The notes: generated by a model from the sequence alone, not told the origin. A DNA stretch of 64,000 bases from an uncultured Candidatus Saccharimonadales bacterium (GCA_964609585.1 CAZSRA010000002.1:46820-110819), one strand, 5' to 3'. Positions 10,330 to 31,024 are shown, numbered from the stretch's first letter. Program-made: numbers and translations.

Positions 10330-10369
10330 TTACCGGTTCGAACATAATATGGCCCCATATACAACATGA

Positions 10370-10444: not shown

Positions 10445-10454
10445 AAGAAGACTC

Positions 10455-10950: not shown

Positions 10951-11104
10951 TAGCTTAATCTAGCATAACATAATTTAATATTTTAGTCAATTTTGGACTC
11001 TTGCATTCCGCTTTAGGCTCCACTCCCTGCGGGAATGCCTTTAAAGCAGTTGTACCTCTTAGCGTGTCGTACCACTCGGCTAGCTCCTATAAGATATAGT
11101 TCCA

Positions 11105-11126
11105 GTTCGCTACCAGGTGGACTACC
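11105..11126 (+). repeat. Degenerate copy of the tRNA-Glu 3' end (possible relic attachment-site repeat)
   Basis: gttcgctaccaggtggactacc versus the tRNA 3' end gttcgactccccgtgggactacc, about 19 of 23 positions by eye, ~680 bp downstream of the tRNA. Confidence 0.2.
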
Positions 11127-11137
11127 GGGAATTATTT

Positions 11138-11167
11138 AAAAACAGGCTCAACTGGGGCCTGTTTTTG
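11138..11167. terminator. Bidirectional intrinsic terminator (ends the 11199..11837 gene)
   Basis: aaaaAACAGGCtcaactggggGCCTGTTttt: 7-bp stem flanked by an A-run and a T-run. Confidence 0.5.
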
Positions 11168-11198
11168 CGTATCATGGGTATAGATCCAGGTGAGCTTG

Positions 11199-11837: not shown

Positions 11838-11920
11838 ACCTACGTACCTTTAAGTTGCTTAATGGTTATGCTTTTAAAATTAGGCTGATTTCCCGGAAAA
11901 ACAAGTGCGCGCGGCACTCG

Positions 11921-13150: not shown

Positions 13151-13193
13151 AAGCGTGGGCGGATGTGGGTTTATTATACCTTATACTAGAGGC

Positions 13194-14249: not shown

Positions 14250-14338
14250 GAGGCCTTCTTAAGCTTGGAGTCGTCAAGACGGGCTTTGATTTTAGCTACA
14301 TTACCTCTTTTTGGGAGGTGTCTTAAAAAGAGGTGAAT

Positions 14339-15766: not shown

Positions 15767-16859
15767 CTTGTGAAGCTTTAATGTCCATCGCGAGGTCCGG
15801 ATTCCACATGGCGCCGGTGGCGGACTGGACGAGGTTGGCCCCGGCTTTGATGTACTCATGATAATCGGCTGGGTTCATAACGCCACCAACGCCAATGATT
15901 TCGTATTTGAGGTCGAGCTTAGTGCGGAGGACGGCAAGGCGGCGGACCATATCGAGGCCGGCCCATTTGATACTGGCTCCGCAAAGTCCGCTTTTGAGGC
16001 GGCCGGCGCCGGGAAGGGCTTGCTCCCCTTTTTCATTAACTATTGGGGCGGCGATGGTGTTGATGGCAGCGATCCCATCGACGTAGGGAGCCATTTTGCG
16101 CACGACGGTTTCGAGGAGATCTTGCTGCTCGGGGCTGTAATAGCCGATTTTAACGAGTAGCGGCGTGGGTCCGGCGGCCACTTTGGCGCGGCGACAGATC
16201 TCCTCCACGGCCTCGGGGTTATAGCAAATGACACCTTCGCTGGCGACGTTTGGGCATGAAAGATTGAGCTCGATGGCGCGCGCTCCGGCCTTTGCAGCCA
16301 TTCTCGTGACTGTGGCAAAATCGTCATAATATTCGGTTTCGGTGAAGCCGGGCTGGATAGTGCCCTGGACACTCATAATTACAAGTTGGCCGCGGTTGAC
16401 GGCGGCGAGGGTTTTTTTGAAGTCGCTCATCCAAAAGTCGGGGCCACGCGAGGGCACACCAAAGGAGTTGGTGATCGTGAATTCCTGAGTTGGCCGGGTC
16501 GTAGTGGTGCGGCCCACGAGCGGGCGAGCGGCTTTTTCGAGGGTGAGATCACCTTCGACGTCCACGTAAAGAACATTCGGGAAGGCGTTGACCTCGAAGG
16601 CCACGCTGCGTTGAGTTTTGTAGGTAATAACATCGAAGCCTTTTACGAGGGCGGCGATGACGTATTTGGCGTTCAAGAGTGGGCCGGCCGGAATGCCAAA
16701 GGGCAGGTAAATGGGGGCACCTAGGAATTCAAATTTGGGACGGCCAGAGTTATGAAACGGTATGGGGGCGGCAAAATCGCCGAAGGGGCCATGGTCGAAA
16801 TTGTCGGCATAGGATTTGGCCGGATCATAGATGGGTGGTTGGCTTTGGAGAGTTGACAT
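15753..16859 (-). CDS. pyrD: Dihydroorotate dehydrogenase (class 1-like, with N-terminal extension)
   Basis: ELNLSCPN motif, FMN-binding TIM-barrel pattern (GIAAINTIA...GVGGV), 368 aa. Confidence 0.8.
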   Translation of the reverse strand: MSTLQSQPPIYDPAKSYADNFDHGPFGDFAAPIPFHNSGRPKFEFLGAPIYLPFGIPAGPLLNAKYVIAALVKGFDVITYKTQRSVAFEVNAFPNVLYVDVEGDLTLEKAARPLVGRTTTTRPTQEFTITNSFGVPSRGPDFWMSDFKKTLAAVNRGQLVIMSVQGTIQPGFTETEYYDDFATVTRMAAKAGARAIELNLSCPNVASEGVICYNPEAVEEICRRAKVAAGPTPLLVKIGYYSPEQQDLLETVVRKMAPYVDGIAAINTIAAPIVNEKGEQALPGAGRLKSGLCGASIKWAGLDMVRRLAVLRTKLDLKYEIIGVGGVMNPADYHEYIKAGANLVQSATGAMWNPDLAMDIKASQASRV

Positions 16860-16877
16860 GGTACCTTAAATGGTAGC

Positions 16878-17720
16878 ATGAATCTGGACGACGGCAGAAA
16901 CGAGAATTTTGTCGCTAAGCTGACGCAATCGGTGGAGCGATCGAATTCGCTGTTGTGCGTGGGACTGGATCCAGGTTTTTCGAAATTGCCGGCGGCAACG
17001 CGGGATCAGTTTGAGTTTAATAAAGCTATTATCGACGCTACGCACGATTTGGTATGTGCGTATAAGCCGAATCCCGCATTTTACGAGGCGCGGGGAGCTG
17101 AGGGTGTGGCGGCGCTGAAGCGCACATGCGACTACATTAAGGCCGAGTATCCAGAGGTGCCGATTATTGTGGATGCGAAGCGCGGCGACATTGGCAATAC
17201 GAACGCTGGGTATGTGGAGTATGTGTTTGATTATTTGGGTGCCGATGCCGTGACAGTGGCGCCTTACATGGGTTCGGAGTCGCTGGGGAAATTTTTGGAG
17301 CGTGGCGATAAAGGCATTATTGTGCTGTGTCGAACTTCGAATCCGGGGGCGGCGGAGTTCCAGGATTTGCTGGTAGAGGGCGAGAAGTTGTACGTGCATG
17401 TAGCGCGGCAAGTCGTGAACACCTGGAATGAGCGCGGCAATTGCCTGCTCGTGGTGGGGGCAACGTATCCGGACGAGCTGCGCGAAGTACGCGAGATTGT
17501 GGGGCCGGACATGCCGCTTTTGATTCCGGGCATCGGCGCGCAGGGTGGCGACGTGGCGAGCACCATGGCGGCGGGACTCGGTGCGAGTGAGCGCGGGCTA
17601 ATCATTAGTTCGTCGCGGGGGATTATTTTTGCTTCGAGCGGAGATGATTTTGCGCGTGTAGCGCGGGCTGAGGCTAGGAAGTTGCGCGATGAGATAAATG
17701 AATATCGAAAGGGAGTTTAG
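16878..17720 (+). CDS. pyrF: Orotidine-5'-phosphate decarboxylase (long type 2)
   Basis: LLCVGLDPGFSKLP...IIVDAKRGDIGNTN...VTVAPYMG: the type-2 ODCase signature. Confidence 0.85.
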   Translation: MNLDDGRNENFVAKLTQSVERSNSLLCVGLDPGFSKLPAATRDQFEFNKAIIDATHDLVCAYKPNPAFYEARGAEGVAALKRTCDYIKAEYPEVPIIVDAKRGDIGNTNAGYVEYVFDYLGADAVTVAPYMGSESLGKFLERGDKGIIVLCRTSNPGAAEFQDLLVEGEKLYVHVARQVVNTWNERGNCLLVVGATYPDELREVREIVGPDMPLLIPGIGAQGGDVASTMAAGLGASERGLIISSSRGIIFASSGDDFARVARAEARKLRDEINEYRKGV

Positions 17721-17722
17721 CA

Positions 17723-18367
17723 ATGAAGGGTGATGAGATTAAGCAGCTACTGATTAACTGCGGTGGCTGGCTCGAAAATGATCATTTTGTGGGCACAACG
17801 GGTAACCATATGAGTACCTATATTAACAAGGACGCGCTATACCCGCATACGCAGTACGCTTCGAAATTGGGTGAGGCGATGGCGGTAGCGATGGCCGAAT
17901 GGGACCCGGAGGTAGTGGTGAGTCCGGCGCTAGGCGGGATTGTGCTCACGCAATGGTCGGCCTTTCATGTGAGCAAACTTTTGGGTCGTGAGGTGCTGGC
18001 GGTGTACGCCGAGAAGTCCGATGGGCCGGAGAAGTTTGCCTTTACCCGCGGCTACGACAAGCTGGTGGCAGGTAAGCGAGTGGTGGTGGTGGAAGATAAT
18101 TTGACCACGGGCACGTCGGTGCGAAAGGTGGTGGAACTGGCACGGGCGACGGGCGCTGAAGTGGTGGGCGTTGTGGCTATGCTCAACCGCGGTGGAGTAG
18201 ATGTGGCGGCAGTGGGCAATCCTCCACATTTTGCGGCAATTATTGAGGCCGATTTGAAGTCTTGGCCGGCTGACGAATGTGAGTTGTGCGCCAAGGGGAT
18301 ACCAGTGAATACGAAGATCGGGAAGGGGAAGAAGTTTTTGGAGGCGCAGCGCGCGGCGGGTAAGTAA
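17723..18367 (+). CDS. pyrE: Orotate phosphoribosyltransferase
   Basis: PRPP-binding motif VVVVEDNLTTGTSV; 214 aa; immediately downstream of pyrF. Confidence 0.85.
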   Translation: MKGDEIKQLLINCGGWLENDHFVGTTGNHMSTYINKDALYPHTQYASKLGEAMAVAMAEWDPEVVVSPALGGIVLTQWSAFHVSKLLGREVLAVYAEKSDGPEKFAFTRGYDKLVAGKRVVVVEDNLTTGTSVRKVVELARATGAEVVGVVAMLNRGGVDVAAVGNPPHFAAIIEADLKSWPADECELCAKGIPVNTKIGKGKKFLEAQRAAGK

Positions 18368-19282: not shown

Positions 19283-20433
19283 GCACTTGCGAGACGATAC
19301 CGGCAGACGGCGGATTTACCGCTTTGGGCTCCCCATCACCAGACACCTGCCGTATAATAGCTATGATGAGATTCCCGAAGCTGAGCACCCAACAAGCTCA
19401 GATGAGACGTTTGGGACGCTTTGGTGGCGTGGCGGCGATTTTGGCCGGCAGCGCTGTGGCGATGGTTTTGATGTGGCCAAAATCTTCTGTAAATCTAGCT
19501 GGTAATGTGACATATCCAGCCGATTTACGGAAGCAGTATAGCGCAATCGTGCAGGCGGTACATGCTTTTGAAACGCGCCAAAGTAATCTCCAAGCCCAAG
19601 TAGTGAGCGTGCATGATCTTAACTCGCAGCTTTCGCGCATTCAAATTGACGCAACGAGTGGCCAATTTGCGGTAGCGGAAGCGGATATCACATCGCTAAA
19701 ACAGGCTCTTGCAAACTGGAACTTTGAGCTGAGCGGCGGCACGAAGGTGGCGGCAGCCACCCAGCCTCAGTCGACAAGCGGTCTGTACCTGCCGATTTTG
19801 CTCTATCATTACCCTCCGGCAAATTTTGAGCAGCAACTTGAGCATCTCGACAAAGCAGGATATACGACGATTGACCTCGACCAGGCACTTGCTGGCATGC
19901 AAGGGGCGGCGCTCCCACCGAAACCGGTCGTGATTACTTTCGATGATGGTTTTGAAGCTCAAATGTCAGCCTACAACCAGCTAAAGCAGCATCACATGAA
20001 GGCGACGTTTTATATTATTAACGCCGGCGAGGCAAGCCGGTGGTGTATTGGTGCAGGACGGCGCTACGGCGATCCGCTGCAGCCACCAAGTGGATGTGGA
20101 GATACTTATTTAAGCTGGGATCAGATCAAAGAGATGGATAAGAGTGGCTTGATTACCATTGCTGGTCACACGGTGAATCACCGAGACCTCGTGACGCTGT
20201 CGGAAGCAGATCAAAGATTTGAGATCGTAACGGGTAAGGCGATGCTGGAGGCCGAGCTGGGTCATAGTGTACGCCATTTTGCTTACCCTTACGGTGCGTT
20301 TAACGCTACAAGTATCGCTCTGGTGCAAGAAGCCGGCTATGTGACGGCAGTGACGACACAGCCGGGCGCTTTTCAGCCGGCGGGTTCGAACTTCACCTTG
20401 CGACGCGTGCGAGATGCCATGGTGCTGCCCTAG
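19279..20433 (+). CDS. Polysaccharide deacetylase (NodB-homology domain) with N-terminal membrane anchor
   Basis: N-terminal TM (GGVAAILAGSAVAMVLMW); VVITFDDGFEAQ (motif 1 TFDDG); IAGHTVNHRDL (motif 2 H-x-x-x-H). Confidence 0.75.
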   Translation: MSTCETIPADGGFTALGSPSPDTCRIIAMMRFPKLSTQQAQMRRLGRFGGVAAILAGSAVAMVLMWPKSSVNLAGNVTYPADLRKQYSAIVQAVHAFETRQSNLQAQVVSVHDLNSQLSRIQIDATSGQFAVAEADITSLKQALANWNFELSGGTKVAAATQPQSTSGLYLPILLYHYPPANFEQQLEHLDKAGYTTIDLDQALAGMQGAALPPKPVVITFDDGFEAQMSAYNQLKQHHMKATFYIINAGEASRWCIGAGRRYGDPLQPPSGCGDTYLSWDQIKEMDKSGLITIAGHTVNHRDLVTLSEADQRFEIVTGKAMLEAELGHSVRHFAYPYGAFNATSIALVQEAGYVTAVTTQPGAFQPAGSNFTLRRVRDAMVLP

Positions 20434-20915
20434 GTTGGTTTGGAGCCGGAATCCGGGACGGTAAGTCCCAACTTGGTGCTGATAAGGTTGAGAACTTCGC
20501 GAGGGGTGAGCTCAGCTTTTACAAGATAGTCGGCGCCATAGGAGTGAGCGGCATTGCGGTCCGATAGCGCGGATGAGTTTGTGAGCACAATGACAGGCAT
20601 GGCGGAGAAGTCAAAATTGTCGTTTTGAAGGGCTCCGAGGACTTCGAGGCCAGATAGTTCTGGCATGTTAATGTCGAGTACGGCCAGGTTCGGATGCTCG
20701 GACTTGATGGCTTCGAAGGCATCGCGACCGTTATTTTTAACGATTACCTTGAAACCAGCGCCCTCAAGTTTTATTTGATACATGCGTGAAATGAAAGGAT
20801 CGTCTTCGGCGATGAGGACGATTTTTGAGTCACCATCCGTGGGAGCTGGAGCGGCTACTGGATCAGTGACGGTGTAAGTGGGCTCTTCAGGCTTTGGATT
20901 TGGGGTTTTTGGCAT
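20430..20915 (-). CDS. Response regulator, receiver domain only (Pro-rich N-terminal extension)
   Basis: KIVLIAEDD...LAVLDINMP...VIVLTN...YLVK: a complete REC fold with no output domain. Overlaps the upstream kinase by 29 nt. Confidence 0.85.
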   Translation of the reverse strand: MPKTPNPKPEEPTYTVTDPVAAPAPTDGDSKIVLIAEDDPFISRMYQIKLEGAGFKVIVKNNGRDAFEAIKSEHPNLAVLDINMPELSGLEVLGALQNDNFDFSAMPVIVLTNSSALSDRNAAHSYGADYLVKAELTPREVLNLISTKLGLTVPDSGSKPT

Positions 20916-23067
20916 GGACTACCTCGTGTTTTTTTGCAGTTACCGGCTTGAGGGGCAACTCGAACCCAAAGGTCGAACCTTTGCCCTCTTCACTGTTGAA
21001 TATTATTGTACCACCTTGATCTTCGATGACGCGTTTGGCGAGATATAGCCCGAGGCCAGTACCATCAGGACGTACGATCTGAGCGTTGTCGGCGCGGAAG
21101 AATTTGCTAAAGAGCTTGCGTTTGGCGCTATCCGGTACGCCAATGCCGGTATCGCGGACTTCGAGCCGTATGCGGTCGCCGGATTGCTTTAGGATTACCC
21201 GCACTTCGCCTTGCTTGGTGTAGTAGATGGCGTTGTCGATAAAGTTCATGATGACCTGGCGGGTTTTGTTATCGTCCACTTCGGCTAGGGGGAGGTTTTT
21301 GACGGGTGGCTCAAAGATGAGTTTGAGGTTTTTGGCTGTTGCGTGGGTTTGGAGCTGGCGGACTTCATCTGAGATCATGGCAGCCATGTCGGTGGGCTTG
21401 GTTTGAATGAGGAAGCGGCCGGCTGATAAACGCGAGACGTTGAGCAAATCGGAAATGAGATTTACCATGCGCTCGCTAGAGCCGAAGGCATAGCCCACAA
21501 ATTCCTCCTGGGCTTTCGTGAGTTTGCCGGCGTCGCCTTCTTGCATCATCGAGAGGTAGCCTTTGATGGTAGTGAGCGGCGTGCGCAACTGGTGCGACGC
21601 CATGGAGATAAATTCGTCCTTGGCGTGATCGAGCTCTTTGAGGTGACGATTGGCGAGGCGGAGGCGGTTGGTAGCATGGTCAATGCGGGCCTGAAGAGTG
21701 AGGTTGAACTCTTGAATTTCGGCGTAGGCTTTAGCGTTGGAGATGGCGACGGCAAGCTCCTTACCAATGATCTCAAGGAGCTCTAAATCTTGACCAGAAT
21801 ATATACCGCCGGATAATTTATCGCCAAGCAGAAGATAGCCAATAAATTCATCACGAGTTCGCAAGATCATCGACACCCTGATATTGTGTGTGTCCATAAT
21901 TTCCTTACGCTCGCCAGATTCGAGTTCGTCGGCGATGAGTATGCCTTTGTCCAATTTGGCGAGCTCAGGAGCGATCATGAGACGTTTTGGCAGGAGACCA
22001 TAGTGCTCAACTCGGTAGACTTTATTATCATTAAATATGATTAGCTGTCCAAATTGGATATGCAATTTCTCACTCAGCTCAGTAATGGTCTGTTTAAGGA
22101 CTCGGTTGAGATCGAGTTCGGAGACGAGAATTTTAGTGAAATTACTAATGACTTCTTCGGAGTCATAGTGATGGCGATAAAAAACGCGATTAGTTATCTT
22201 TTCAAAGAAGCGGCGTAGAGGTTGGAAGGTAACGGACAGAACCAGTGCCAGTAGTATATTAAATAGGCTTTCGGACATTTGATTAGTATGGGTCGGGAAA
22301 AATAGGCCCGATAGAGCATAAAGTGCCACGGCATATCCGCAGGCAAGAGTGGAGAGTAATAGTACATAGGCTGCAGACCGAGCGACGAGCGACCGAATGT
22401 CGAATAGGCGGCGAGTAATGATAGCGTAAGAAATAATGATGCCAGCCGCGAGTAGAAAAATAGGACTAATGGAGATAAAGAGGGTAATGCCAAAGCCGAG
22501 TGGCAAGATAATCGTGGCCAGAAGTGTAAGACCGAAACCAGCGATAAGACCAGTGGCCACAAGCTGAAGTTGCGCATGTTCTAGTCCTTTTGATCTGCGA
22601 TACATCTGAATCAGCCGGATTGATCCACCGGCGAGCGTGAAGAGCATCATGAGCCCAAAAGATGGAATGGCTGGGCCAATAGTGAGCTGTGGTTGGCCGT
22701 TAGTGATCGTGACGGACCGGAAAAGTAGGTTGGTGAATAGTAAAATACTGTTTATAACCCACCAGATCGATAGCCCTCGCGCGAACAGCCGCCGGTATTT
22801 GAAACGAGTACGCGCGAAGGAATCAACAAAAAAGAAATACAGCGGTCCCGTACAGACTCCCGTAAAGATAGCTAACTTTGCCCATAAGAAGGCTAGCTCT
22901 GGGCCTTGAGAATGGAGGCTAAAGTAGTTAAAAATCGGGTAAAGCGAATTTACAAAAATTAATCCAGCAAAAGTCCGATTGAGCATACTCCGACTGTTCT
23001 TAGATAAAACCGCTAGAACGAGTCCAAAATTTACGACTGCCGTGATAATGGCGAGTATGAGTTCCAC
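20887..23067 (-). CDS. Sensor histidine kinase, 7-TM N-terminal sensor, HisKA plus HATPase
   Basis: Seven or more N-terminal helices; H-box FISMASHQLRTPLTTIKGY; N-box NFIDNAIYYT; G-boxes DTGIGV and GTGLGL. Confidence 0.85.
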   Translation of the reverse strand: MELILAIITAVVNFGLVLAVLSKNSRSMLNRTFAGLIFVNSLYPIFNYFSLHSQGPELAFLWAKLAIFTGVCTGPLYFFFVDSFARTRFKYRRLFARGLSIWWVINSILLFTNLLFRSVTITNGQPQLTIGPAIPSFGLMMLFTLAGGSIRLIQMYRRSKGLEHAQLQLVATGLIAGFGLTLLATIILPLGFGITLFISISPIFLLAAGIIISYAIITRRLFDIRSLVARSAAYVLLLSTLACGYAVALYALSGLFFPTHTNQMSESLFNILLALVLSVTFQPLRRFFEKITNRVFYRHHYDSEEVISNFTKILVSELDLNRVLKQTITELSEKLHIQFGQLIIFNDNKVYRVEHYGLLPKRLMIAPELAKLDKGILIADELESGERKEIMDTHNIRVSMILRTRDEFIGYLLLGDKLSGGIYSGQDLELLEIIGKELAVAISNAKAYAEIQEFNLTLQARIDHATNRLRLANRHLKELDHAKDEFISMASHQLRTPLTTIKGYLSMMQEGDAGKLTKAQEEFVGYAFGSSERMVNLISDLLNVSRLSAGRFLIQTKPTDMAAMISDEVRQLQTHATAKNLKLIFEPPVKNLPLAEVDDNKTRQVIMNFIDNAIYYTKQGEVRVILKQSGDRIRLEVRDTGIGVPDSAKRKLFSKFFRADNAQIVRPDGTGLGLYLAKRVIEDQGGTIIFNSEEGKGSTFGFELPLKPVTAKKHEVVHAKNPKSKA

Positions 23068-23069
23068 GG

Positions 23070-24134
23070 CTAATGAGTGGCTTCTGTTAGTTTGATCCGC
23101 TCAAGACTTTTGCGAGGCGAGTGCCGCACGTTTCCGTCAACGTGACCCAGCCCGAAGTAAAGCTGTGGATCGAGGGTGGCACTAAAAAGCTTGGCCAAAC
23201 TAGGGCTGTTGCCGGCTTCGAGCGCGGCGGCTTTTGGAGCAAGGCCGAGACCGTTGAGGGTAGCCAAGAGCCCAACCTGCTCATACAAGAGGCCAGCGTT
23301 TATCCAGCTGGCTGGATGGTTGGTTTCGGCCATTATAAGACCGAGCGCCGGGGCATGGCTTAGTGTTGCAAAATCGCGCTTGGCGACCATTTTACTAGCA
23401 ACGGGGGTAAGACTCGTGACGGTTTTGGCGATCACGGATTGCGGAGGGGTAAGACCAAATGTGAAACCGGGCATACCGTCGTGTCGTTTTGTGAAACTTG
23501 GTCGCATCCAAGAAGCAATTTCGCGACTAAAGCGCCGATTTGTGGCGAAGCTTAGGGTTGATTCCTGATGAATGGCGGCAAGCTGCTGAATAGTAGCCGA
23601 GTCAGTCGTTAGCGCCACACGAGCGTCACCCCAGCTAAGCTCAGATATTTGACGAGCAACCTCAGGATCGATTGTGCCGGCCTCGAATGCAAGCTTGTGA
23701 GATTGGCGATTGGCGATGGCTGGAAAAAGTTTTGCAAGCTCGGAATTTCGATGACCCACATTAAGGGGGTGGAATGTCAGTTCTACGGTAATTTCCTGCA
23801 TGGATCGGCCACGAATCTCATATTTTGCTAGCCAACCGAAGTACTCGGCAGCTACTAGGATATTAAGCAGGCAACAACCCAGACTCATAAACAAACCACG
23901 ACTCGCCGTGTCGGAATGCGGGAGAGCGCGGCTCCAGTCGGGTTTGATACTTAGCTGGTTAGGTGGAAGATAGCTAAATAGCCAAGGCTGAGTATTGTGG
24001 GTGGAGGGGGCGAGGATGCCATAGCCGATAAGGAAGCGAATTTGGTCTTTGACACTACCAGCGCGTGGATAGTCGGCTTCGTTGATATTCCAGGCGGTAT
24101 AGTTTGACTGTTTGGTCCGCAAGATGAGTACCAT
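23070..24134 (-). CDS. Acg-family (tandem-fold) nitroreductase-like flavoprotein
   Basis: The motif ILAPSTHNTQPW matches the Acg/Rv2032-type nitroreductase signature (APSxHNTQPW). About 350 aa, consistent with a tandem nitroreductase fold. Confidence 0.65.
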   Translation of the reverse strand: MVLILRTKQSNYTAWNINEADYPRAGSVKDQIRFLIGYGILAPSTHNTQPWLFSYLPPNQLSIKPDWSRALPHSDTASRGLFMSLGCCLLNILVAAEYFGWLAKYEIRGRSMQEITVELTFHPLNVGHRNSELAKLFPAIANRQSHKLAFEAGTIDPEVARQISELSWGDARVALTTDSATIQQLAAIHQESTLSFATNRRFSREIASWMRPSFTKRHDGMPGFTFGLTPPQSVIAKTVTSLTPVASKMVAKRDFATLSHAPALGLIMAETNHPASWINAGLLYEQVGLLATLNGLGLAPKAAALEAGNSPSLAKLFSATLDPQLYFGLGHVDGNVRHSPRKSLERIKLTEATH

Positions 24135-24206
24135 GGTTATTAATCTTATAGTAAGGCTAAAGTGGTAGCGTTAGCAAAGGGTATGGGTATCTAGGTTTTT
24201 TGAGAA

Positions 24207-25355
24207 TTATTCGGATCTCGGTTTCAATAGTTGCTGGATGGCGGCATCTCTCTTGGCGGAGGCGGCAGTTTCTAGCGGGAGATTGAGTAGGGCATTCAGG
24301 TCGAGACGGTAACGACCACTAGCTAGGGGGGAGCCTAAAAGTATTTGGCGCACTACAAAGGCTGCTACACCCGATTCAATGGTGACCGTACTGCCTAACT
24401 GAGGGCGTCCAACGAGTGTGGAGCCAATTTCTAGCAGCGATTCAATGGCGCGGGTCGGGACATTGGCGAGGCCGATAATTTGAGCTGCGAAGCGCTGTTT
24501 GTCGGCCGATGTGAGGTCTCCAGCCAAAAGCTTGGATTCGAGATCGCCAATGAGACCGTTGAATATTTGAAGGTCCGGCTCAAGGTCGTAGCGTTCGATA
24601 TCGATTAAGATACTATCGCCAAGGCCGGTCAACATAACAACAGGGATACGAAGCTTCTTTGCTTCATAACGGAGGCGAACTTTCATTTCGAAGTCGTCGA
24701 TTTCATCGAAACCGACAGCAGCGGGCTTGTCGCCCCCCAGAAACCCATGAACAGTTGTTTGGTCGATACCCTTTGGAAAGAGGGTGAGGTGGGCATAGGG
24801 ATTAACAGCCCAGATGCGCTCGGCTGTGACTTGAGCTTTGGGCTTGCCGAGATCCGCGAGGGACGCCTGAACGCGGTTGAGATTAGGGGTTTCTAGGCGA
24901 TCGAAATCAGCCAAATATAGAGTGCTCCCGATACCGGCGTAAGACAGGCTAACGGCAATGCCGCCGCCCACCGATAGACCGGCAATGGCTATGTGAGCTT
25001 TCGCGAGCTTGTTTTGCTCGTCTTCGGTGATCAGGCTGCGATTGCGGTTGGTCCGAAGCGCGAATTGTTCTGTCTCAGTGAGGGTATGCAATAAATAGCC
25101 ACTCCAGGGTAAATAAATCCAGTCGCCGACCAGATCTTTGTCTAAGCCGGTTCGATTAGCGATAAATTTGGTCTGCTCAGCGGTGAAGTTTGGGTCTCCA
25201 GCCAAGTGTGGATGAGTAACCTCAAATAGGTCAGCAAGTTGAGACTCAACAACGTCGATTGTTTTCCAAATAGAATAACTTCTAAGCTCCTCAAGATCGC
25301 TCGCTCGGTAAGCACCCTCTCTTAAGATGATTGGCTTGGTAACTTCTTTACCCAT
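24207..25355 (-). CDS. ThiF/MoeB/E1-like adenylyltransferase with ~110-aa N-terminal extension
   Basis: RTNRNRSLITEDEQNKLAKAHIAIAGLSVGGGIAVSLSYAGIGSTLYLADFDRLETPNLNRV is the E1 Rossmann/ATP motif (compare RYSRQ...GxGxxG...DxDxVExSNLxRQ). No CxxC zinc motif. Confidence 0.75.
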   Translation of the reverse strand: MGKEVTKPIILREGAYRASDLEELRSYSIWKTIDVVESQLADLFEVTHPHLAGDPNFTAEQTKFIANRTGLDKDLVGDWIYLPWSGYLLHTLTETEQFALRTNRNRSLITEDEQNKLAKAHIAIAGLSVGGGIAVSLSYAGIGSTLYLADFDRLETPNLNRVQASLADLGKPKAQVTAERIWAVNPYAHLTLFPKGIDQTTVHGFLGGDKPAAVGFDEIDDFEMKVRLRYEAKKLRIPVVMLTGLGDSILIDIERYDLEPDLQIFNGLIGDLESKLLAGDLTSADKQRFAAQIIGLANVPTRAIESLLEIGSTLVGRPQLGSTVTIESGVAAFVVRQILLGSPLASGRYRLDLNALLNLPLETAASAKRDAAIQQLLKPRSE

Positions 25356-26869
25356 TTTTGCTTAGTCCCCGGTTTAAAGTAATTAGCGTCTTCGTATGGC
25401 CAGAAGGTAAGTATAGGATATACACGCTCTCCATATTCTTCAAATGTGCGTCGGTATTCGGAGCTGTCCTGGAGAAGTCGCTCAACAACGGCCATCTGTG
25501 TCCGGTCATGAAGGTCCGGGGTTTCTGGAGTATCCGTCTTTAACTCTAAATGGATTTTGAGTTCTTGCTGCCCGCCAGCGTCGTATTCGACCGACATAGT
25601 AAACTTCCCAGTGAGTTCCTCGGCGAGACGACGCCCCGCTAGGGCGGCGCGAATTGTCTCTGGATAGATTTGGAAGGCAAAGAAGGATACAGAAAAATCA
25701 CTACGCTCGTAGATATATACAAATGGCAAGTTCCAGACCGTCTCGCGAATACCGGCAGCCTCAGCTTCTGCCATAAGGTCAAGGCCGTGATCTGCGAAAT
25801 GGCGTGTCATTTGAGCGAGGGTGATAACGCCACCATGGTCCTTGAGATCATACCGCACGAGCGGATAGCCACTGGAGGCGGTGCAGTAGAGATTCTCGTT
25901 GATTGACTCGAAGTAGAACTGCTCAGGCAAATATTGCGCAAGAGTGGGGAGGCGATTGGGCTGCCCGAATATGGCTTCATAGAGGGCTGGACGGGCTAGT
26001 GCTAGGCGGCGAATAAGAATCGACAGCGGCGTTTCATGGGCCATCGTACCGAGGTCAACGGTGCCGTAATGGTTGAGTGTATCGGTGTAAATATTAGTTA
26101 GTCCGGTTTTTTCGGCAACATAATCACGGAATGTCTCGCTAAAAGCCTCGGCTGAAAACACGAAACCTAGTTTGTAATCAGACCATTTCAGTCCAGCTCT
26201 AAGGCCGTCATCAATAATGTCTTTGAGAAAAGGCGCGTAAGAGCCAATGATTATTTGATCAAAGTCGGCGCCTAAATTCTGAACGGCCTTGATAATCTCG
26301 AGCTTATTGATACCGGGCGTAATAATGCTGAGCGCATAGCCGCCACGCTCCCCTACTCGACGCAGAGCCTCATAAGTGAATAGGCCGCCAATCCAAGCAC
26401 CCATTGGGAAGGCGACAATATAGAGGGTGCTGCGTTCGTGAATGTGGAAGTTGGAACGCAAATAGAGCTCTGCGGTATCGGCATATTGATCGTCTTGCAG
26501 GCTGGTGCGAGGGAAATAAAACGGCTCTCCGGTAGACCCCGAGGTTGTTGATATGGTCCAGCGCTGATCATGGAATTCACCATTCCAGCAAAGCTCCGAG
26601 CGAGAGAAGCTACGCAAGTAGCCAGCCTTGTCAATTGAAGGGATATTGACTAGATCACCAATATCCCGGACTTTCGCGGGTTCAAATAATTGAGAAGCGA
26701 GAAATTTGCGATAAGCCGGCACCTGGTGGGCGGCAGCACGGAAAAGCTCGAGCGCGCGAGTGGCGCCACGAGCCAACCAAATGTCCTCTGGCTGCTCGTG
26801 CAGATGGCCGAGGAGCTTGTCGGAGTTTGGAAGATCTGGGTTTGGAAATGTGTATGGCATGTTCGTCAA
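25322..26869 (-). CDS. PaaK/F390-synthetase-like adenylate-forming enzyme (ANL superfamily)
   Basis: TTSGSTGEPFYFP matches the P-loop-like AMP-binding motif of phenylacetate-CoA ligase and coenzyme F390 synthetase homologues. 515 aa. Confidence 0.65.
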   Translation of the reverse strand: MTNMPYTFPNPDLPNSDKLLGHLHEQPEDIWLARGATRALELFRAAAHQVPAYRKFLASQLFEPAKVRDIGDLVNIPSIDKAGYLRSFSRSELCWNGEFHDQRWTISTTSGSTGEPFYFPRTSLQDDQYADTAELYLRSNFHIHERSTLYIVAFPMGAWIGGLFTYEALRRVGERGGYALSIITPGINKLEIIKAVQNLGADFDQIIIGSYAPFLKDIIDDGLRAGLKWSDYKLGFVFSAEAFSETFRDYVAEKTGLTNIYTDTLNHYGTVDLGTMAHETPLSILIRRLALARPALYEAIFGQPNRLPTLAQYLPEQFYFESINENLYCTASSGYPLVRYDLKDHGGVITLAQMTRHFADHGLDLMAEAEAAGIRETVWNLPFVYIYERSDFSVSFFAFQIYPETIRAALAGRRLAEELTGKFTMSVEYDAGGQQELKIHLELKTDTPETPDLHDRTQMAVVERLLQDSSEYRRTFEEYGERVYPILTFWPYEDANYFKPGTKQKWVKKLPSQSS

Positions 26870-26986
26870 CTATTATCCAGGTTAATGCTATATATCAGAT
26901 ATACATTGGTTATAGTAACAAAAATTAATACCCGATGTTAGTAAAATTACACAAAATGAATACTGACTGATTGCCCTTCACTAAAA

Positions 26987-28144
26987 TTGCGATATAGTAG
27001 GGGGGTGATTGCAAAGCGCGTCGCTAACTTTGATAGTAGCCACATTAGTGAGGCGTTTAGCCGAATACGGGAGATTCCGGATCCGGTTGATCTTAGTATT
27101 GGTTTTCCGGAAGATCCAACGCCGGACTATATTAAAGCAGCCGGAATTCGCGCCATTACTAATGATTTTACGCGCTACACCCCCGCCAACGGTATTTTTG
27201 AACTAAGGGTAGCGATCTCTGAGAAACTTTCCCGTGAGAATAATCTGAAGGTAACACCAGAGCGGGTGGCGGTGACACCCGGCGTAACAACGGGCATATT
27301 GCTAGCCTACTTGACCCTACTTGATCCGGGTGACGAGATTTTAATCCCTGATCCGTACTTCCCTCCCCATTTTGCACTTGCGGAATTGATCGGTGCCGTG
27401 CCGGTAGCAATTGACACCTATCCGAGCTTCCAGCTCACGGCGAAGCTGATCGAGCGCTATATTACGCCAAAAACAAAAGTGCTCGTTATTAACTCGCCCA
27501 ACAATCCATCTGGAGCGGTCTACCCAGAGCGAGAGTTGAGACGGATCGCCAGGCTCGCGAAACAGCACAATTTAACCATTATTTCAGATGAGATCTACGA
27601 GTATTTTTGTTACGATTCGCCGCACTTTAGTATTGGTAGTGTTTATCCAAATACCGTGACTCTTAACGGATTTTCAAAAGCCTATGCGATGACCGGGTGG
27701 CGGATTGGGTATATGACAGGGCCGACAGATGTAATGGCAGCGGTTAATCAAGTGCAACAATATGTGGTGTTTTCGAATTCTTCGATTGCAGAGAAAGCGG
27801 CACTGGCTGCGTTGCGGCATAATCCGACACGCTTAACACGCAAATACCACAATAAACGGGATACAGTATTGCGATACTTAGATGGGACGTTTGAAGTGTA
27901 TGGCTCACAAGGCTCGTTTTTTGCCTATGTCCCGCTACCGCCGGGGATCACTGATGTGGAATTTTGCCAAGAAGCGGCAGCTCAAGGATTGATTATTTTG
28001 CCCTCCCGAGCGTTCTCTCAACGGCACGATTATGTGCGCGTTTCATTTGCGGCGACGCATTTAACGCTCGTGAGAGGCTTAAAAATCTTACGCAAACTGG
28101 CACAAGAAATGGCGGAGAGGAAGCGGGTGTCTGTTAGATCATGA
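26987..28144 (+). CDS. PLP-dependent aminotransferase class I/II (aspartate/aromatic aminotransferase-like)
   Basis: LNGFSKAYAMTGWRIGY (the PLP lysine in SKAYAMTGWR), NPSGAVY, 385 aa. Confidence 0.85.
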   Translation: MRYSRGVIAKRVANFDSSHISEAFSRIREIPDPVDLSIGFPEDPTPDYIKAAGIRAITNDFTRYTPANGIFELRVAISEKLSRENNLKVTPERVAVTPGVTTGILLAYLTLLDPGDEILIPDPYFPPHFALAELIGAVPVAIDTYPSFQLTAKLIERYITPKTKVLVINSPNNPSGAVYPERELRRIARLAKQHNLTIISDEIYEYFCYDSPHFSIGSVYPNTVTLNGFSKAYAMTGWRIGYMTGPTDVMAAVNQVQQYVVFSNSSIAEKAALAALRHNPTRLTRKYHNKRDTVLRYLDGTFEVYGSQGSFFAYVPLPPGITDVEFCQEAAAQGLIILPSRAFSQRHDYVRVSFAATHLTLVRGLKILRKLAQEMAERKRVSVRS

Positions 28145-28207: not shown

Positions 28208-28591
28208 ATGACTACCTCTAAAACGAAAGTCGCAATCATCGAGGATGATATGGCGATTGTGCAAATGTACCGGACGAAGTTCGAGACTGAGGGCTATGAA
28301 GTAGCAACGGCGGAGGATGGCGCCGCTGGGCTGGAACTGATTGAGTCGTTTGAGCCCGATATTATTTTGCTCGACTTAATGATGCCAAATATGAACGGCC
28401 TGGATATGCTGTCGCGCCTGCGTAGCCAGCAAAATGGCCGCAATGCCAAAGTGGTGGTGCTTACCAATATGGGCGACACGGAAACGGCGACGAAAGTGTA
28501 TAAGATGGCGGCGGACGATTACATTGTGAAGGCGGAAATGACTCCGAAGCAGGTGGCAGAGCGAGTGAAGGCGCTGCTAGCTAGGGGCTAA
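28208..28591 (+). CDS. Response regulator, receiver domain only
   Basis: VAIIEDD...IILLDLMMP...VVVLTN...YIVK; 127 aa. Confidence 0.85.
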   Translation: MTTSKTKVAIIEDDMAIVQMYRTKFETEGYEVATAEDGAAGLELIESFEPDIILLDLMMPNMNGLDMLSRLRSQQNGRNAKVVVLTNMGDTETATKVYKMAADDYIVKAEMTPKQVAERVKALLARG

Positions 28592-28960: not shown

Positions 28961-30259
28961 TCAGCGCAATCTAGGCAGCCGTTGCCAGCGCCCAACTGCC
29001 CACTGAGCAGCCATGTTCGTCCAGCCTCGGTTGACGTACTGAAGGTGCCCGCAGGCCGGAAGACTGGCGATGCAGGGCGGGATATCCCGTTTTTGGTAGT
29101 TACAAACCGGATCTCCCTTCACGCAGTAACTCCGGACGCGGGCCTGCCATTTGCCCGGGATGGTTTGAGGGTCGTACCCGGTCTGCAACAGAATGCCCGA
29201 GAGCTGTCTGCTGTAGGTACCCACGTTGACGAGATTCTGCGATTTGTCCGGATTGAATACCGGGTCGCCGAATTCCACAACGGCGGCGATGTGCTTGCGT
29301 TCCTCGTCGGTGAAGAGCGCATAAGCATCGCCTGCTGCCTGTGCCCCCTGGCTGTACCCGGCGATGACCGCGTATGTGGTGGGGCAGAACTGCAGGAAGT
29401 TGCGCACCGACTTCAGCAGCGAATCCCGGCCAGCCCATTCACTACTCACGTAGTTGGCCGGATAGGCCGGATCCCACCATAGGACGTCAATGGCTGGGTA
29501 GTCGACAGCTTCGAACCGGAGGCCCGGAATCGATCGTGCCATGGCATTCTTGTCGGTATCGACGGTATCTCCCATACCCTCGCCCTGCCAAGGCTTTTCG
29601 CCGGAGCCTCTGAGCCCGAAGAACTTGACCGTTCCGCACTTGTAGCCTGGAGGCTTGGTTGTGCTCGGGCTGGATGGCGTCGCGCTCGATGGCGGCGCGG
29701 AGGTTGGCGTTGAACTGACCGTGGTCGGCGAAGTGGGGGTCGGACCTGGGGTCGGGGGAGTCTGACTCAGACCGAACACGAGGTACATCGCTGAAGAGCC
29801 GATGCTGCCGCAATTGTCGATCAGAGAGATACGGAGGTGGTTGCTCCCCGTATGCAAGAAGCTCCCACTGATGTCGAGTGGCGGTGCGGACGTGATGGTT
29901 CCGCCGCAGTTCCCACTGTAGTCGTGATAGTACAGCGTTCCCCCGGAGGGACTCGGGTTTATGTCGATGTCCACAGCGTCGTTGACGAATGTATCGCCGG
30001 TACCGTCTGGGTTAGAAGACAGCCATACGGGACCCCCCGGGTAGTTCACGTCCAACGCCAGATAGCCGAAGCTCGTTGGCCCGTCTTTGAGCTGTGCGGC
30101 GATGGGGTCGGTGATCTTGATGACAGTGACCGATGTGTCGGCGGCGGCCGGGCCCGTAAAGAGCCCAACGCCAACCAAAGCCAGGCAGAGCGCCATCATT
30201 GTGGCTGCAAGGCCTACCACAGGCGAACTGCCGCGGGGCCGTTTGAGATTTTGCGACAC
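28961..30259 (-). CDS. Secreted cutinase-family serine esterase with N-terminal domain and PT-rich linker (on a high-GC island)
   Basis: Signal peptide; linker PPTPGPTPTSPTTVSSTPTSAPPSSATPSSPSTTKPPG; cutinase core with nucleophile elbow AGYSQGAQAAG, paired cysteines, Asp in GDPVC and His in CGHLQY. Confidence 0.75.
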   Translation of the reverse strand: MSQNLKRPRGSSPVVGLAATMMALCLALVGVGLFTGPAAADTSVTVIKITDPIAAQLKDGPTSFGYLALDVNYPGGPVWLSSNPDGTGDTFVNDAVDIDINPSPSGGTLYYHDYSGNCGGTITSAPPLDISGSFLHTGSNHLRISLIDNCGSIGSSAMYLVFGLSQTPPTPGPTPTSPTTVSSTPTSAPPSSATPSSPSTTKPPGYKCGTVKFFGLRGSGEKPWQGEGMGDTVDTDKNAMARSIPGLRFEAVDYPAIDVLWWDPAYPANYVSSEWAGRDSLLKSVRNFLQFCPTTYAVIAGYSQGAQAAGDAYALFTDEERKHIAAVVEFGDPVFNPDKSQNLVNVGTYSRQLSGILLQTGYDPQTIPGKWQARVRSYCVKGDPVCNYQKRDIPPCIASLPACGHLQYVNRGWTNMAAQWAVGRWQRLPRLR

Positions 30260-30487: not shown

Positions 30488-31024
30488 CTAGTTGCTCTGG
30501 TCGGGTCGGTCGGTCGGTGCGAGCTGTGCCCTCAGGACATCGGCGAGCTCACTGCTTCTGACGGCACCGTACGCGATCATCGAGGCGTGCGTCTCGGGCC
30601 GCTTCGAACCCCACTTTACCGAGAACCACGGCCTCGAGAACAGGGCGATGAGGGTGGAGACGCCGCTTGCGTCCGCTGCCTCGTACGCCAGGTCTGAGCC
30701 GTGGTCCAGACCGACGATGGCCAGGCGGTAGTAGCCCTCGCTCTCGAGGTTGAAGACGGCAGTCGCGATGGCATCGAGGCCCTCAGCATCGGAGATGCCG
30801 TTGACTCGCCGGACGAATTTCGAGGCCCAGGAGTAGGCGAAGTGCGGCAGGAAGAGCACAGCTCGCCGGCTTCTGGTGGGATCGATGTGGCAGTGGGCGA
30901 GACCGGCAGCCCGGATGACCGCCAGGAGCTCCTCGGCCGCACTTGATTGCGCCACCAGGACGACTCCGTCTGGCCACTCTCGTGGCTCAGGGGTGTCCGA
31001 ACCTTGGGGTGCGAATCCTGACAT
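30488..31024 (-). CDS. Hypothetical protein (high-GC island)
   Basis: 178-aa ORF with no confident motif. Confidence 0.35.
   Translation of the reverse strand: MSGFAPQGSDTPEPREWPDGVVLVAQSSAAEELLAVIRAAGLAHCHIDPTRSRRAVLFLPHFAYSWASKFVRRVNGISDAEGLDAIATAVFNLESEGYYRLAIVGLDHGSDLAYEAADASGVSTLIALFSRPWFSVKWGSKRPETHASMIAYGAVRSSELADVLRAQLAPTDRPDQSN

Follow-up and report, generated by a model that had tools for sequence, protein, structure and literature searches.

Organization of the locus

We analyzed an operon in a Saccharibacteria-type (Patescibacteria/CPR) genome, located within a DNA stretch of 64,000 nucleotides here referred to as the window. Five minus-strand ORFs proposed in a previous sequence-only reading were all present at the coordinates given there, and their family assignments agreed with the Pfam and NCBIfam profiles. 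The conserved unit extended beyond these coordinates and additionally comprised a divergent aminotransferase gene and a second receiver-only gene. The features were:

20430..20915, minus strand: receiver-only response regulator (REC), 161 aa, Pfam Response_reg
20887..23067, minus strand: 7TM sensor histidine kinase (HK), Pfam HisKA_7TM, HisKA and HATPase_c
23070..24134, minus strand: Acg/FDO-type single-chain (tandem) nitroreductase-fold flavoprotein (NTR), 354 aa, NCBIfam Acg family
24207..25355, minus strand: ThiF/E1-like adenylating enzyme, 382 aa, Pfam ThiF and NCBIfam Rv1355c family
25322..26860, minus strand: PaaK-family (ANL superfamily) adenylate-forming ligase, 512 aa, start codon ATG at 26860 by an independent gene call
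26861..26986, no strand: AT-rich divergent intergenic region of 126 nt between ligase and aminotransferase
26987..28144, plus strand: class I/II PLP aminotransferase, Pfam Aminotran_1_2
28208..28591, plus strand: second receiver-only response regulator, 127 aa, Pfam Response_reg (1.3e-26)

The ligase gene had initially been given as 25322..26869, and the motif TTSGSTGEPFYFP described for it was present. The minus-strand genes had been reported to be separated by 2-nt gaps or to overlap. This was correct for PaaK/ThiF (34 nt overlap), NTR/HK (2 nt gap) and HK/REC (29 nt overlap) but not for ThiF/NTR, which are 72 nt apart. The intergenic region between ligase and aminotransferase presumably houses the promoters of both divergent transcripts. 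A single, weak promoter-like match was located at 26971–26998; such matches were not more frequent in 26861..26986 than in shuffled sequence, and no Rfam family matched there.

Conservation of the gene neighbourhood

The five-gene arrangement was seen again, far beyond chance, in the related loci, which comprised 80 genome loci and 80 metagenome loci (160 in total). Co-occurrence in related genomes, named earlier as a point to check, held for ligase and ThiF: 75 of the 80 genome loci had both genes next to each other (median overlap 16 nt), and in the reverse test a PaaK-family gene was located upstream in 56 of 57 ThiF-anchored metagenome loci. Eight of these 56 were non-CPR loci with 66–74% GC (some of them near-identical contigs), whose ligase was barely alignable to the CPR ligase. 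Gaps between the core genes of the related loci were almost always 51 nt or less, with a few larger ones of up to 775 and 1110 nt.

The NTR gene adjoined ThiF in 62 of the 80 loci, and in 8 CPR loci this operon position was taken by genuine fusions of ThiF and NTR with lengths of 720–760 aa. Despite long flanks, 14 loci lacked the NTR, among them those of the two relatives closest to the window. The desaturation step proposed below is therefore dispensable, a point against the oxazolone reading.

Upstream of the ligase an aminotransferase was present in 38 and a dehydrogenase in 33 of the 80 loci, and both together in none. The genes of aminotransferase (Aminotran_1_2, 1.8e-63) and ligase are divergent in the window. 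Other CPR lineages have a co-directional amino-acid dehydrogenase of the Leu/Phe/Trp type in place of the aminotransferase; this dehydrogenase matched ELFV_dehydrog and, as the best NCBIfam model, the tryptophan dehydrogenase ScyB (292 bits, below the cut-off). The alternation of two unrelated enzymes that both interconvert amino acids and 2-oxo acids points to small-molecule chemistry at the amino-acid level. This conserved amino-acid-converting partner, aminotransferase or dehydrogenase, was absent from the earlier account of the locus. Furthermore, a REC–aminotransferase pair on one strand was found in 22 loci (median gap 33 nt), and 18 loci carried an alpha/beta hydrolase, which in some relatives is joined to the flavoprotein in one protein.

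No gene of the OxzA/TyzA/TrzA type was found beside or between the core genes of the 160 related loci and the window, and a GNAT probe had no match in either, which is a weak negative. YcaO was absent from the operon and ten flanking genes (Pfam), and the gene clusters recurring among the related loci did not include it either. The reported lack of YcaO, ThiS/MoaD, paa and molybdopterin genes was thus borne out for the operon and the flanking genes scanned.

The PaaK-family ligase

The ligase shows a PaaK-type two-domain ANL fold with the adenylation motifs TSGSTGEP, YGTVD and RYDLKD and an invariant Lys500 near the C-terminus. It belongs to a divergent but highly conserved clade with 46–78% identity across CPR classes. 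Scores against the PaaK phenylacetate-CoA ligase models (TIGR02155 / NF041878) were only 22–23 bits at cut-offs of 646–700. Since paa genes were found neither in the window flanks scanned nor in the related loci, the gene is not part of a known phenylacetate-degradation set.

Among the top four structural neighbours were ClxA (9s3l) and 6siw, a chain titled only 'PaaK-like ligase' that may be NatL2. The closest neighbours also included true CoA ligases, namely a BT_0428-type PaaK and a 2-hydroxyisobutyryl-CoA ligase. Homologues with 32–34% identity stand alone in Actinomycetota in variable gene contexts, so the ligase can do without these partners (ThiF and FDO), which speaks against the oxazolone reading. 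Formation of amides or esters without CoA is known for the PaaK-family enzymes NatL2 and ClxA (PMC7204872, PMC12519233) and provides a precedent for the role proposed here. On sequence alone, however, amide-forming and CoA ligases are not separable for the window enzyme.

The ThiF-like protein and its flavoprotein partner

In the ThiF-like protein the Pfam ThiF domain covers residues 104–241 (8.5e-19). The extra N-terminal domain described before is therefore real and about 100 aa long; residues 1–100 form an additional alpha/beta domain, and the AF2 model of the protein had a pLDDT of 91.6. The best family model was Rv1355c (NCBIfam; 1.2e-89, 301.5 bits), matched at model positions 10–356 of 722 and thus in its N-terminal half, and an actinobacterial fusion of this family shared 40% identity over 285 aa. 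Rv1355c is TrzS, a synthetase of small-molecule oxazolones (PMC12856293, PMC10404671), and belongs to a system that the sequence-only reading had not considered. Among the ATP/Mg residues of ThiF, 33 family members had an invariant G-loop, N158-L-N-R161, K173 and D220. D220 aligned with the conserved Asp of the same motif in the Rv1355c-family protein. Since Asp217 of TrzS is located in the ThiF adenylation motif (PMC12856293), we infer that D220 is its counterpart. By sequence the nearest solved relatives were TcdA dehydratases, and these make an oxazolone ring as well (PMC12596934). The gene of a stand-alone Streptomyces ThiF of this clade overlaps a GNAT gene directly downstream, which suggests another N-acylating partner for the ThiF clade.

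The flavoprotein had been assigned to the Acg-family tandem nitroreductases. The motif APSTHNTQPW was present and Acg was indeed the best NCBIfam match (NF047509; 1.6e-53, 182.3 bits, positions 2–317 of 319), with a score just below the cut-off of 199 bits that fused relatives passed (CPR 227 bits, high-GC 205 bits). The match to the C-terminal half of the Rv1355c model (1e-17, 63.7 bits, positions 369–650) was weaker, and identity to the FDO half of an actinobacterial Rv1355c-family protein was only 26%. Over its full length the NTR aligned with the C-terminal half of a ThiF–NTR fusion found in CPR at this operon position (30% identity, E = 8e-39). As the ThiF-like protein matches the N-terminal and the NTR the C-terminal half of Rv1355c, both together correspond, judged by these alignments, to a ThiF–FDO protein split into two genes. 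Profile searches thus supported the E1 as well as the ANL assignment. For NF005901, the model of the Rv1355c family, the equivalog cut-off is 476 bits; the CPR fusion reached 382.5, the high-GC fusion 311.5 and a true actinobacterial member 1015. With the ThiF-like protein of the window and the CPR fusion both below this value, they form a sister clade that may perform other chemistry.

A putative oxazolone-type pathway

Based on the coupling of ligase and ThiF, the fusions, the ATP/Mg residues, the known ThiF–FDO chemistry and the amino-acid enzymes, we propose that the operon encodes a small-molecule pathway akin to those of the oxazolone synthetases, with an ATP-dependent ligase at its centre. 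We give this reading a probability of roughly 0.5. The product would probably be an uncharacterised small molecule derived from amino acids.

From the gene context, the aminotransferase, or the dehydrogenase in other lineages, would interconvert an amino acid with a hydrophobic or aromatic side chain and the corresponding 2-oxo acid and so supply one substrate. The PaaK-family enzyme would adenylate a carboxylic acid and couple it to the amine of the amino acid, yielding an N-acyl amino acid; this is the weakest step. It would thereby stand in for the acyl-CoA-dependent N-acyltransferases OxzA, TyzA and TrzA. By homology to TrzS, TyzB and OxzB, the ThiF-like protein would adenylate the alpha-carboxylate of the N-acyl amino acid, and the amide oxygen would close the 5(4H)-oxazolone. 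Homology and the fusions suggest that the Acg/FDO-type flavoprotein desaturates the C-alpha–C-beta bond to give a conjugated oxazolone. In relatives, the alpha/beta hydrolase may open or transfer the activated ring. The FDOs known so far use O2, which counts against the oxazolone reading given that many CPR bacteria are anaerobic.

The two-component genes

The 7TM histidine kinase was recovered with HisKA_7TM (1.1e-15), HisKA (1.2e-18) and HATPase_c (1.4e-25) in Pfam. Its N-terminal 7TM part is followed by a central region without Pfam match and then by HisKA and HATPase_c. The regulator at 20430..20915 likewise proved to be receiver-only, with Response_reg at residues 33–143 of 161, no output domain and an N-terminal tail of some 30 aa rich in Pro and Thr. 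Inspection of the sequences by eye showed an H-box (SHQLRTPL) and a candidate receiver Asp (VLDINMP). In the 80 related loci a REC gene directly following the kinase was counted at 5 junctions.

By their association with the enzyme genes, the kinase and the receiver-only proteins may control the operon or sense its product. It is possible, though rather doubtful, that they are functionally unrelated passengers, in which case a signalling pair of general use in CPR would simply be transcribed along with the enzymes. The non-CPR loci (66–74% GC) with ligase and ThiF–FDO have no such kinase, the regulators lack a DNA-binding output, and the position of the REC genes differs between loci. On the other hand, a kinase of the same cluster followed the enzymes in 71 of 81 sources (the 80 genome loci and the window), in CPR of many classes and even where the enzyme genes had been rearranged in one of several ways, with a median NTR–HK gap of 7 nt. 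The overall call of the sequence-only reading, an uncharacterised modification module tied to a two-component system, stands, and none of the observations named there as refuting it was made.

A considerably bolder and quite improbable extension is a self-contained signalling circuit of Patescibacteria, in which ligase, ThiF-like protein and flavoprotein would convert scavenged amino acids into a reactive oxazolone or an N-acyl-dehydroamino acid derived from it, to be sensed by the 7TM kinase and relayed by the receiver-only regulators. If true, bacteria credited with next to no biosynthetic capacity would possess an autoinducer or host-sensing system, and enzymatically made oxazolones would for the first time have a physiological role assigned to them.

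Alternative functions of the enzymes

A catabolic or salvage route is an unlikely alternative. Here a scavenged amino acid would be deaminated by the aminotransferase or dehydrogenase, the PaaK-family enzyme would be an ordinary acyl-CoA ligase for the acid so formed, and the ThiF-like/flavoprotein pair would activate and oxidise the same skeleton in another way. The true CoA ligases among the structural neighbours, the homologues working without ThiF or FDO in Actinomycetota and the dispensable NTR in 14 loci are in line with it, as are the 18 loci with an alpha/beta hydrolase, for which acetoin-dehydrogenase-E2-like proteins, C–C hydrolases and enol-lactonases were among the best matches. 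However, paa genes, a 2-oxoacid oxidoreductase and an acyl-CoA-using thioesterase or transferase were absent from all loci, and the PaaK equivalog score of 23 bits is far below the cut-off of 646–700. Moreover, overlapping ligase and ThiF genes occur in two very different ligase lineages, which argues for consecutive steps on one molecule.

We regard as very improbable a C-terminal modification of peptides or proteins as in RiPP, MccB or PaaA systems, or a tagging of proteins in the manner of E1 enzymes. In this case the N-terminal domain would clamp a peptide or protein encoded elsewhere, the ThiF-like enzyme would adenylate its C-terminus and the flavoprotein would oxidise the product. Its attraction is the alpha/beta domain, confidently folded by AF2 at the place of the peptide-binding domain of MccB/PaaA. 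Some Foldseek alignments to PaaA/MccB chains span 320–400 columns, and peptide-acting E1-like enzymes are numerous (PMC12596934). The domain is, however, common to the Rv1355c family and is thus probably not the special peptide clamp that had been suggested. The earlier TOMM/MccB-type framing was not upheld, since the closest ThiF model is Rv1355c, TrzS being a small-molecule enzyme, and since no precursor ORF was found and the loci with tightly packed core genes leave no room for one.

Ordinary sulfur-carrier activation for thiamine, molybdopterin or thio-modification, with the protein as a ThiF/MoeB-type E1 for ThiS/MoaD, can practically be dismissed: ThiF/MoeB models do match the core domain (E-values 1e-17 to 1e-9) and MoeB and ThiF are good structural matches, but none of these models exceeds 63 bits as compared with 301 bits for Rv1355c, the protein has no cysteine in its sequence (and its family no conserved Cys column) and hence neither Zn-binding CxxC pairs nor a catalytic Cys, no ThiS/MoaD-like ORF (50–130 aa, ending in GG) was found in the 64-kb window, thiamine and molybdopterin genes were absent from the operon and the flanks scanned, and the conserved partners in the related loci are instead a ligase and a flavoprotein.

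Comparison with known systems

Like the ThiF-like protein of the window, MccB and PaaA carry an additional N-terminal domain on their E1-like core, and TOMM/LAP clusters pair an E1-like protein with a nitroreductase-fold dehydrogenase. The operon lacks the YcaO of TOMM/LAP and a precursor gene, an RRE (PqqD-like peptide-binding domain) could not be made out with confidence, and the flavoprotein is of the Acg/FDO type. TcdA, the tRNA ct6A dehydratase, which together with AclA (PDB 9egb) is among the closest known systems, acts on tRNA and has neither the N-terminal domain nor a flavoprotein partner.

The ligase has its overall fold and adenylation motifs in common with PaaK phenylacetate-CoA ligase and coenzyme F390 synthetase (COG1541). 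It differs from them by scores of only 17–23 bits (cut-offs 459–700), about 80 additional residues, a separate and very conserved clade and the lack of paa genes. Identity to NatL2 and ClxA of benzoxazole biosynthesis was only 14–19% (PMC7204872, PMC12519233, PMC9400959); these use aminohydroxybenzoates and an amidohydrolase partner, without ThiF or FDO.

TrzS, TyzB/TyzC and OxzB produce N-acyl oxazolones by ATP-dependent cyclisation and flavin-dependent desaturation (PMC12856293, PMC10404671, PMC12596934). In TyzACB of M. tuberculosis (PMC10404671), TyzB (ThiF) and TyzC (FDO) are encoded by separate adjacent genes as in the window. TyzACB and OxzAB of Pseudoalteromonas rubra (PMC12596934) proceed from an N-acyl amino acid through the same two reactions, the logic proposed for the window. 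TyzA and OxzA are N-acyl amino acid synthases of the acyl-CoA or ACP type with an AHL-synthase-like fold, and neither the operon nor the related loci contain one.

TrzAS (Rv1356c–Rv1355c) of M. tuberculosis and relatives synthesizes N-acyl tryptazolones (PMC12856293). Like the window it combines a ThiF-like cyclase carrying the same extra N-terminal region with an FDO-type flavoprotein. The halves are fused in TrzS and separate in the window, whose FDO half is only distantly related, whereas fused forms occupy the same operon position in CPR. The TrzA-type acyltransferase is missing from the window and a PaaK-family ligase takes its place; the aminotransferase or dehydrogenase and the 7TM kinase are additions on the side of the window. 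Many ultra-small CPR bacteria conserve a tightly packed operon in which an enzyme pair of the M. tuberculosis oxazolone type is combined with an ATP-driven ligase and a membrane sensor kinase.

Gene composition of the operon

The operon and its divergent neighbors comprise the following genes:

20430–20915, minus strand: receiver-only regulator
20887–23067, minus strand: 7TM histidine kinase
23070–24134, minus strand: nitroreductase (NTR)
24207–25355, minus strand: ThiF-like protein
25322–26860, minus strand: PaaK-family ligase
26987–28144, plus strand: aminotransferase
28208–28591, plus strand: second receiver protein

The five minus-strand ORFs were all present in the window as described in the sequence-only reading. 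A metagenome contig with independently called genes gave the same set, the ligase starting with the ATG at 26860. In operon order, the genes overlap by 34 nt, are separated by 72 nt and then by 2 nt, and overlap by 29 nt at the last junction; the proposed spacing by 2-nt gaps or overlaps thus holds except for the 72-nt gap. The Pfam matches HisKA_7TM, HisKA and HATPase_c and the receiver-only protein agreed with the types initially given to the two regulatory genes. The best database matches of the operon proteins were all from Saccharimonadales or other Patescibacteria (CPR). No Rfam family was found between 19000 and 29500 (E ≤ 1), and promoter-like and terminator-like sites inside the operon were in no excess over the shuffled expectation.

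The ThiF-like protein and the nitroreductase

The Pfam ThiF domain covers residues 104–241 of the 382 residues of the ThiF-like protein. A longer match was obtained with the 722-position NCBIfam model of the Rv1355c family (positions 10–356, 1.2e-89), the second-best NCBIfam family reaching 85 bits. The nitroreductase, which also matches the Acg family of FMN oxidoreductases in NCBIfam, covers positions 369–650 of the same model. Furthermore, another CPR genome has a 749-aa ThiF–NTR fusion at this operon position, and the nitroreductase aligns along its full length with the C-terminal half of that fusion (E = 8e-39). From the two halves of the model and the alignment to the fusion, the pair is a split form of the ThiF–FDO enzymes, FDO being the flavin-oxidase half of the known oxazolone synthetases. 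Compared with an actinobacterial Rv1355c-family protein, the ThiF-like protein shared 40% identity over 285 residues and the nitroreductase showed only distant similarity to the FDO half. The curated Rv1355c family has a cut-off of 476 bits and even the CPR fusion reaches only 382 bits; the pair belongs to a sister clade outside that family.

The ATP/Mg residues of the ThiF-like protein are invariant across the family. The predicted protein is devoid of cysteine, which excludes thioester or persulfide chemistry as well as the Zn site of ThiF/MoeB. A role in sulfur-carrier activation was rejected on the same ground, together with the absence of a small ORF ending in GG and scores far under the Rv1355c score. 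Among the solved structures, those closest in sequence are the TcdA dehydratases, which close an oxazolone ring as in the chemistry proposed here. For AclA, a top structural match, a literature search for its function returned nothing.

The extra N-terminal domain of the ThiF-like protein is confidently predicted as an alpha/beta fold of the first 100 residues. The sequence-only reading had suggested that it could recognize a peptide or protein and that the operon modifies a small molecule or the C-terminus of a peptide or protein. However, the domain lies within the Rv1355c family model and aligns in actinobacterial and Streptomyces relatives; it is thus a family trait, and the characterized family member works on a small molecule. 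A precursor peptide was also rejected because the tightly packed core genes leave no space for one, and the 126-nt divergent region, inspected for such a gene, was empty. The absence of YcaO, ThiS/MoaD, paa and molybdopterin genes, noted at the same time, was found for the operon and the scanned flanks alike.

A stand-alone ThiF gene of the Rv1355c clade (426 bits on the N-terminal half of the model) is located on a plasmid of Streptomyces sp. NBC_01426 (locus L081, 5932–7706). It carries the same N-terminal region and is followed by an overlapping GNAT acetyltransferase gene; a nitroreductase is absent. This may be an FDO-less pair of acyltransferase and cyclase.

The PaaK-family ligase

The ligase had no Pfam match and matched the NCBIfam PaaK and F390-synthetase models only weakly (E = 2.5e-5 to 2e-3, approximately 20 bits against cut-offs of 459–700 bits). 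A profile of 21 homologues recovered PaaK structures in the PDB; both results bear out the PaaK-like type first assigned to the gene. The ligase resembles a PaaK-family adenylating enzyme in its working, yet it is not PaaK. Phenylacetate catabolism was rejected, as the score for the PaaK equivalog amounts to about 3% of the cut-off and paa genes are absent from the operon, the scanned flanks and the related loci. The database search gave 3,125 matches at E ≤ 0.001, of which the best 120 were all at least 55% identical.

Homologues sharing 32–34% identity occur in Actinomycetota as stand-alone genes with varying surroundings; they include those of Nonomuraea gerenzanensis (L083) and Kibdelosporangium aridum (L087), annotated as 'phenylacetate--CoA ligase family protein'. 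They are strongly conserved within Streptosporangiales and Pseudonocardiales. A shared informative context was sought in six of them and the contexts differed; a kinase paired with a LuxR-type regulator was present in only two of the six, and these kinases showed no kinship to the CPR 7TM kinase.

Conservation of the operon in Patescibacteria

Searching one genome per species with the ligase alignment yielded 80 loci, which were compared by tblastn and ORF clustering. All had a gene content of Patescibacteria type, and many classes were represented. In 75 of the 80 loci the ThiF-like gene was found within 6 kb of the ligase, the remainder being mostly truncated contigs. Among called genes, 47 pairs had the ThiF-like gene directly after the ligase, their median overlap being 16 nt. 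The 7TM kinase formed a single protein cluster present in 71 of 81 sources (the 80 loci and the window).

The nitroreductase was found in 62 of the 80 loci. It was fused to the ThiF-like protein in eight loci and to a C-terminal alpha/beta hydrolase in eight (fusions of 627–649 aa; L005, L027, L030, L052, L055, L060, L067 and L069). In total, the hydrolase occurred in 18 loci, in ten of them encoded on its own between the nitroreductase and kinase genes; it best matched AcoC-like proteins, HsaD/BphD-type C–C hydrolases and enol-lactonases. In 14 loci with long flanks the nitroreductase was missing and the kinase directly followed the ThiF-like gene. These include the two closest relatives of the window (L001 and L002; ligase 78% and 73% identical). 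Identities to these two were 73–78% for the ligase, 58–60% for the kinase and 65–76% for the aminotransferase, but only 42–44% for the ThiF-like protein. The difference reflects either much faster evolution of the ThiF(+NTR) part or its exchange as a cassette.

Upstream of the ligase, 38 loci carried a class-I aminotransferase, usually divergent as in the window, and 33 a co-directional amino-acid dehydrogenase of the Leu/Phe/Trp type (median overlap 4 nt). Both together were present in none of the 80 loci. When two unrelated enzymes that catalyze the same net reaction replace each other at one position, this is a classic sign of a shared functional role.

Many of the Patescibacteria-like loci (within L016–L080) originate from MAGs titled 'uncultured Gammaproteobacteria bacterium' (binchicken, SRP co-assemblies), probably a placeholder or wrong label. 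One locus (L074; CAVRAP010000021.1, ~8000–12000) is an island of 56–57% GC in a 372-kb contig of 65–67% GC, from a MAG labelled Actinomycetota. The island contains a 5'-truncated CPR-type ligase, the ThiF-like gene and a short nitroreductase, with kinase and aminotransferase absent; it could represent a transfer from a saccharibacterial epibiont into its actinobacterial host or an assembly chimera. The product names 'phenylacetate' and 'ThiF' were not found in the Tn-seq tables of the cultivated saccharibacterium Southlakia epibionticum, so the operon seems to be absent there.

Recurrence of the module in metagenomes

The reverse scan, with the ThiF-like alignment against metagenomes, gave 80 loci, 57 of which had at least 1.6 kb upstream of the ThiF-like gene. 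A CPR-type ligase was located there in 48 of the 57, and the ligase was missing in one. The other eight, some of them near-identical contigs, carried a ThiF–NTR fusion gene that overlaps at its start with a 489-aa gene; their GC content of 66–74% marks them as non-CPR. The 489-aa gene is scarcely alignable to the CPR ligase, but belongs to the PaaK family by hhalign (E = 8e-5, 306 columns), with NCBIfam matches to FlxY, DVU_1553 and PaaK. The module of ligase and ThiF(–FDO) thus recurs with two very different ligase lineages, which, more than any other result, argues that ligase and cyclase work in the same pathway. The kinase was confined to the CPR loci.

On the non-CPR contigs (L149–L157, L163, L166 and L169; 66–74% GC) the fusion is 694 aa long and follows the overlapping 489-aa PaaK-family gene, which has no Pfam match. 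Neighboring genes included an arginase-family fragment, an SDR and a 723-aa protein without family match; the 7TM kinase was absent.

Surroundings of the operon

The plus strand is strongly G-rich throughout the window (1–64000) and the cumulative GC skew has no turning point. Skew was +0.16 inside minus-strand and +0.20 inside plus-strand genes and is therefore independent of gene orientation. The C-rich strand carries ~72% of the coding bases, the reverse of the usual leading-strand gene bias.

Beside the operon, the region 13059–18367 has Pfam matches to an amidohydrolase, possibly dihydroorotase, dihydroorotate dehydrogenase, OMP decarboxylase and a phosphoribosyltransferase, possibly orotate phosphoribosyltransferase. 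A pyrimidine gene set would be unusual here, as the group is described as lacking nucleotide synthesis. The region additionally encodes a DUF2079 membrane protein and an RlmA-type methyltransferase. Further ORFs are:

11921–13150, minus strand: 409-aa ORF, no Pfam match
28961–30259, minus strand: 432-aa protein with C-terminal cutinase domain (Pfam)
30488–31024, minus strand: 178-aa ORF, no Pfam match

Proposed pathway and comparison with known oxazolone systems

Oxazolone synthesis by ThiF–FDO enzymes was found between 2021 and 2025 in Proteobacteria and mycolic-acid bacteria, with N-acyltransferases as partners (PMC12856293, PMC12596934). TrzS (Rv1355c) converts N-acyl-tryptophan into an oxazolone by ATP-dependent cyclization and subsequent desaturation, and TyzB/TyzC of M. 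tuberculosis and OxzB of Pseudoalteromonas rubra perform the same conversion on N-acyl-tyrosine (PMC12856293, PMC10404671, PMC12596934). The enzymatically made oxazolones have no physiological role assigned so far (PMC12856293, PMC12596934). Both acid and alcohols destroy oxazolones (PMC12856293).

We give an oxazolone-type small-molecule pathway a probability of about one half. The ligase would form an N-acyl amino acid, which the ThiF-like enzyme would cyclize and the flavoprotein desaturate. The aminotransferase or dehydrogenase might supply the amino acid or, as the more appealing option, a 2-oxo acid serving as acyl donor. A caveat is that characterized FDOs use O2. Some lineages have lost the flavoprotein and in others it is fused to an alpha/beta hydrolase, which suggests that the oxazolone may be an activated intermediate instead of the end product.

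In the known systems the N-acyl amino acid is provided by an adjacent gene for an acyl-CoA-dependent N-acyltransferase, whereas none of the loci, the window included, carries such a gene and the ligase is the only conserved extra enzyme. The Streptomyces GNAT protein, used as a probe for a TrzA-type acyltransferase, gave no matches in the related loci or the window; the neighbor of a plasmid-borne Rv1355c gene was discarded as a probe since it turned out to be TrwB-like. NatL2 and ClxA, both of the PaaK family, need no CoA and couple the acyl-adenylate directly with an amine or hydroxyl (PMC7204872, PMC12519233). ClxA is within the top four structural neighbors of our ligase. Because of the missing acyltransferase gene and this precedent we tentatively propose the ligase as the N-acylating enzyme, an assignment that we hold to be somewhat more doubtful than the pathway itself.

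If this chemistry is true, CPR bacteria would possess a defined secondary or signalling metabolite and an additional, CoA-independent route to N-acyl amino acids and oxazolones would exist, encoded by a tractable set of three or four genes for heterologous expression. If it differs, a widespread pairing of two carboxylate-activating enzymes with unassigned function is still left. The interest rests on the breadth in CPR genomes, the link to a sensor kinase (71 of 81 sources) and the direct testability; the operon is among the few enzyme operons conserved over many classes of these reduced, largely uncultivated bacteria. A literature search found no paper that linked oxazolones or ThiF-like enzymes with Patescibacteria or with a ligase partner.

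The module scores below the curated family and is without the acyltransferase partner of OxzAB, TyzACB and TrzAS, but resembles these oxazolone pathways in its working. What our analysis shows is a large sister clade of ThiF–FDO enzymes whose conserved partner is an ATP-dependent PaaK-family ligase, and which is also tied to an amino-acid-converting enzyme.
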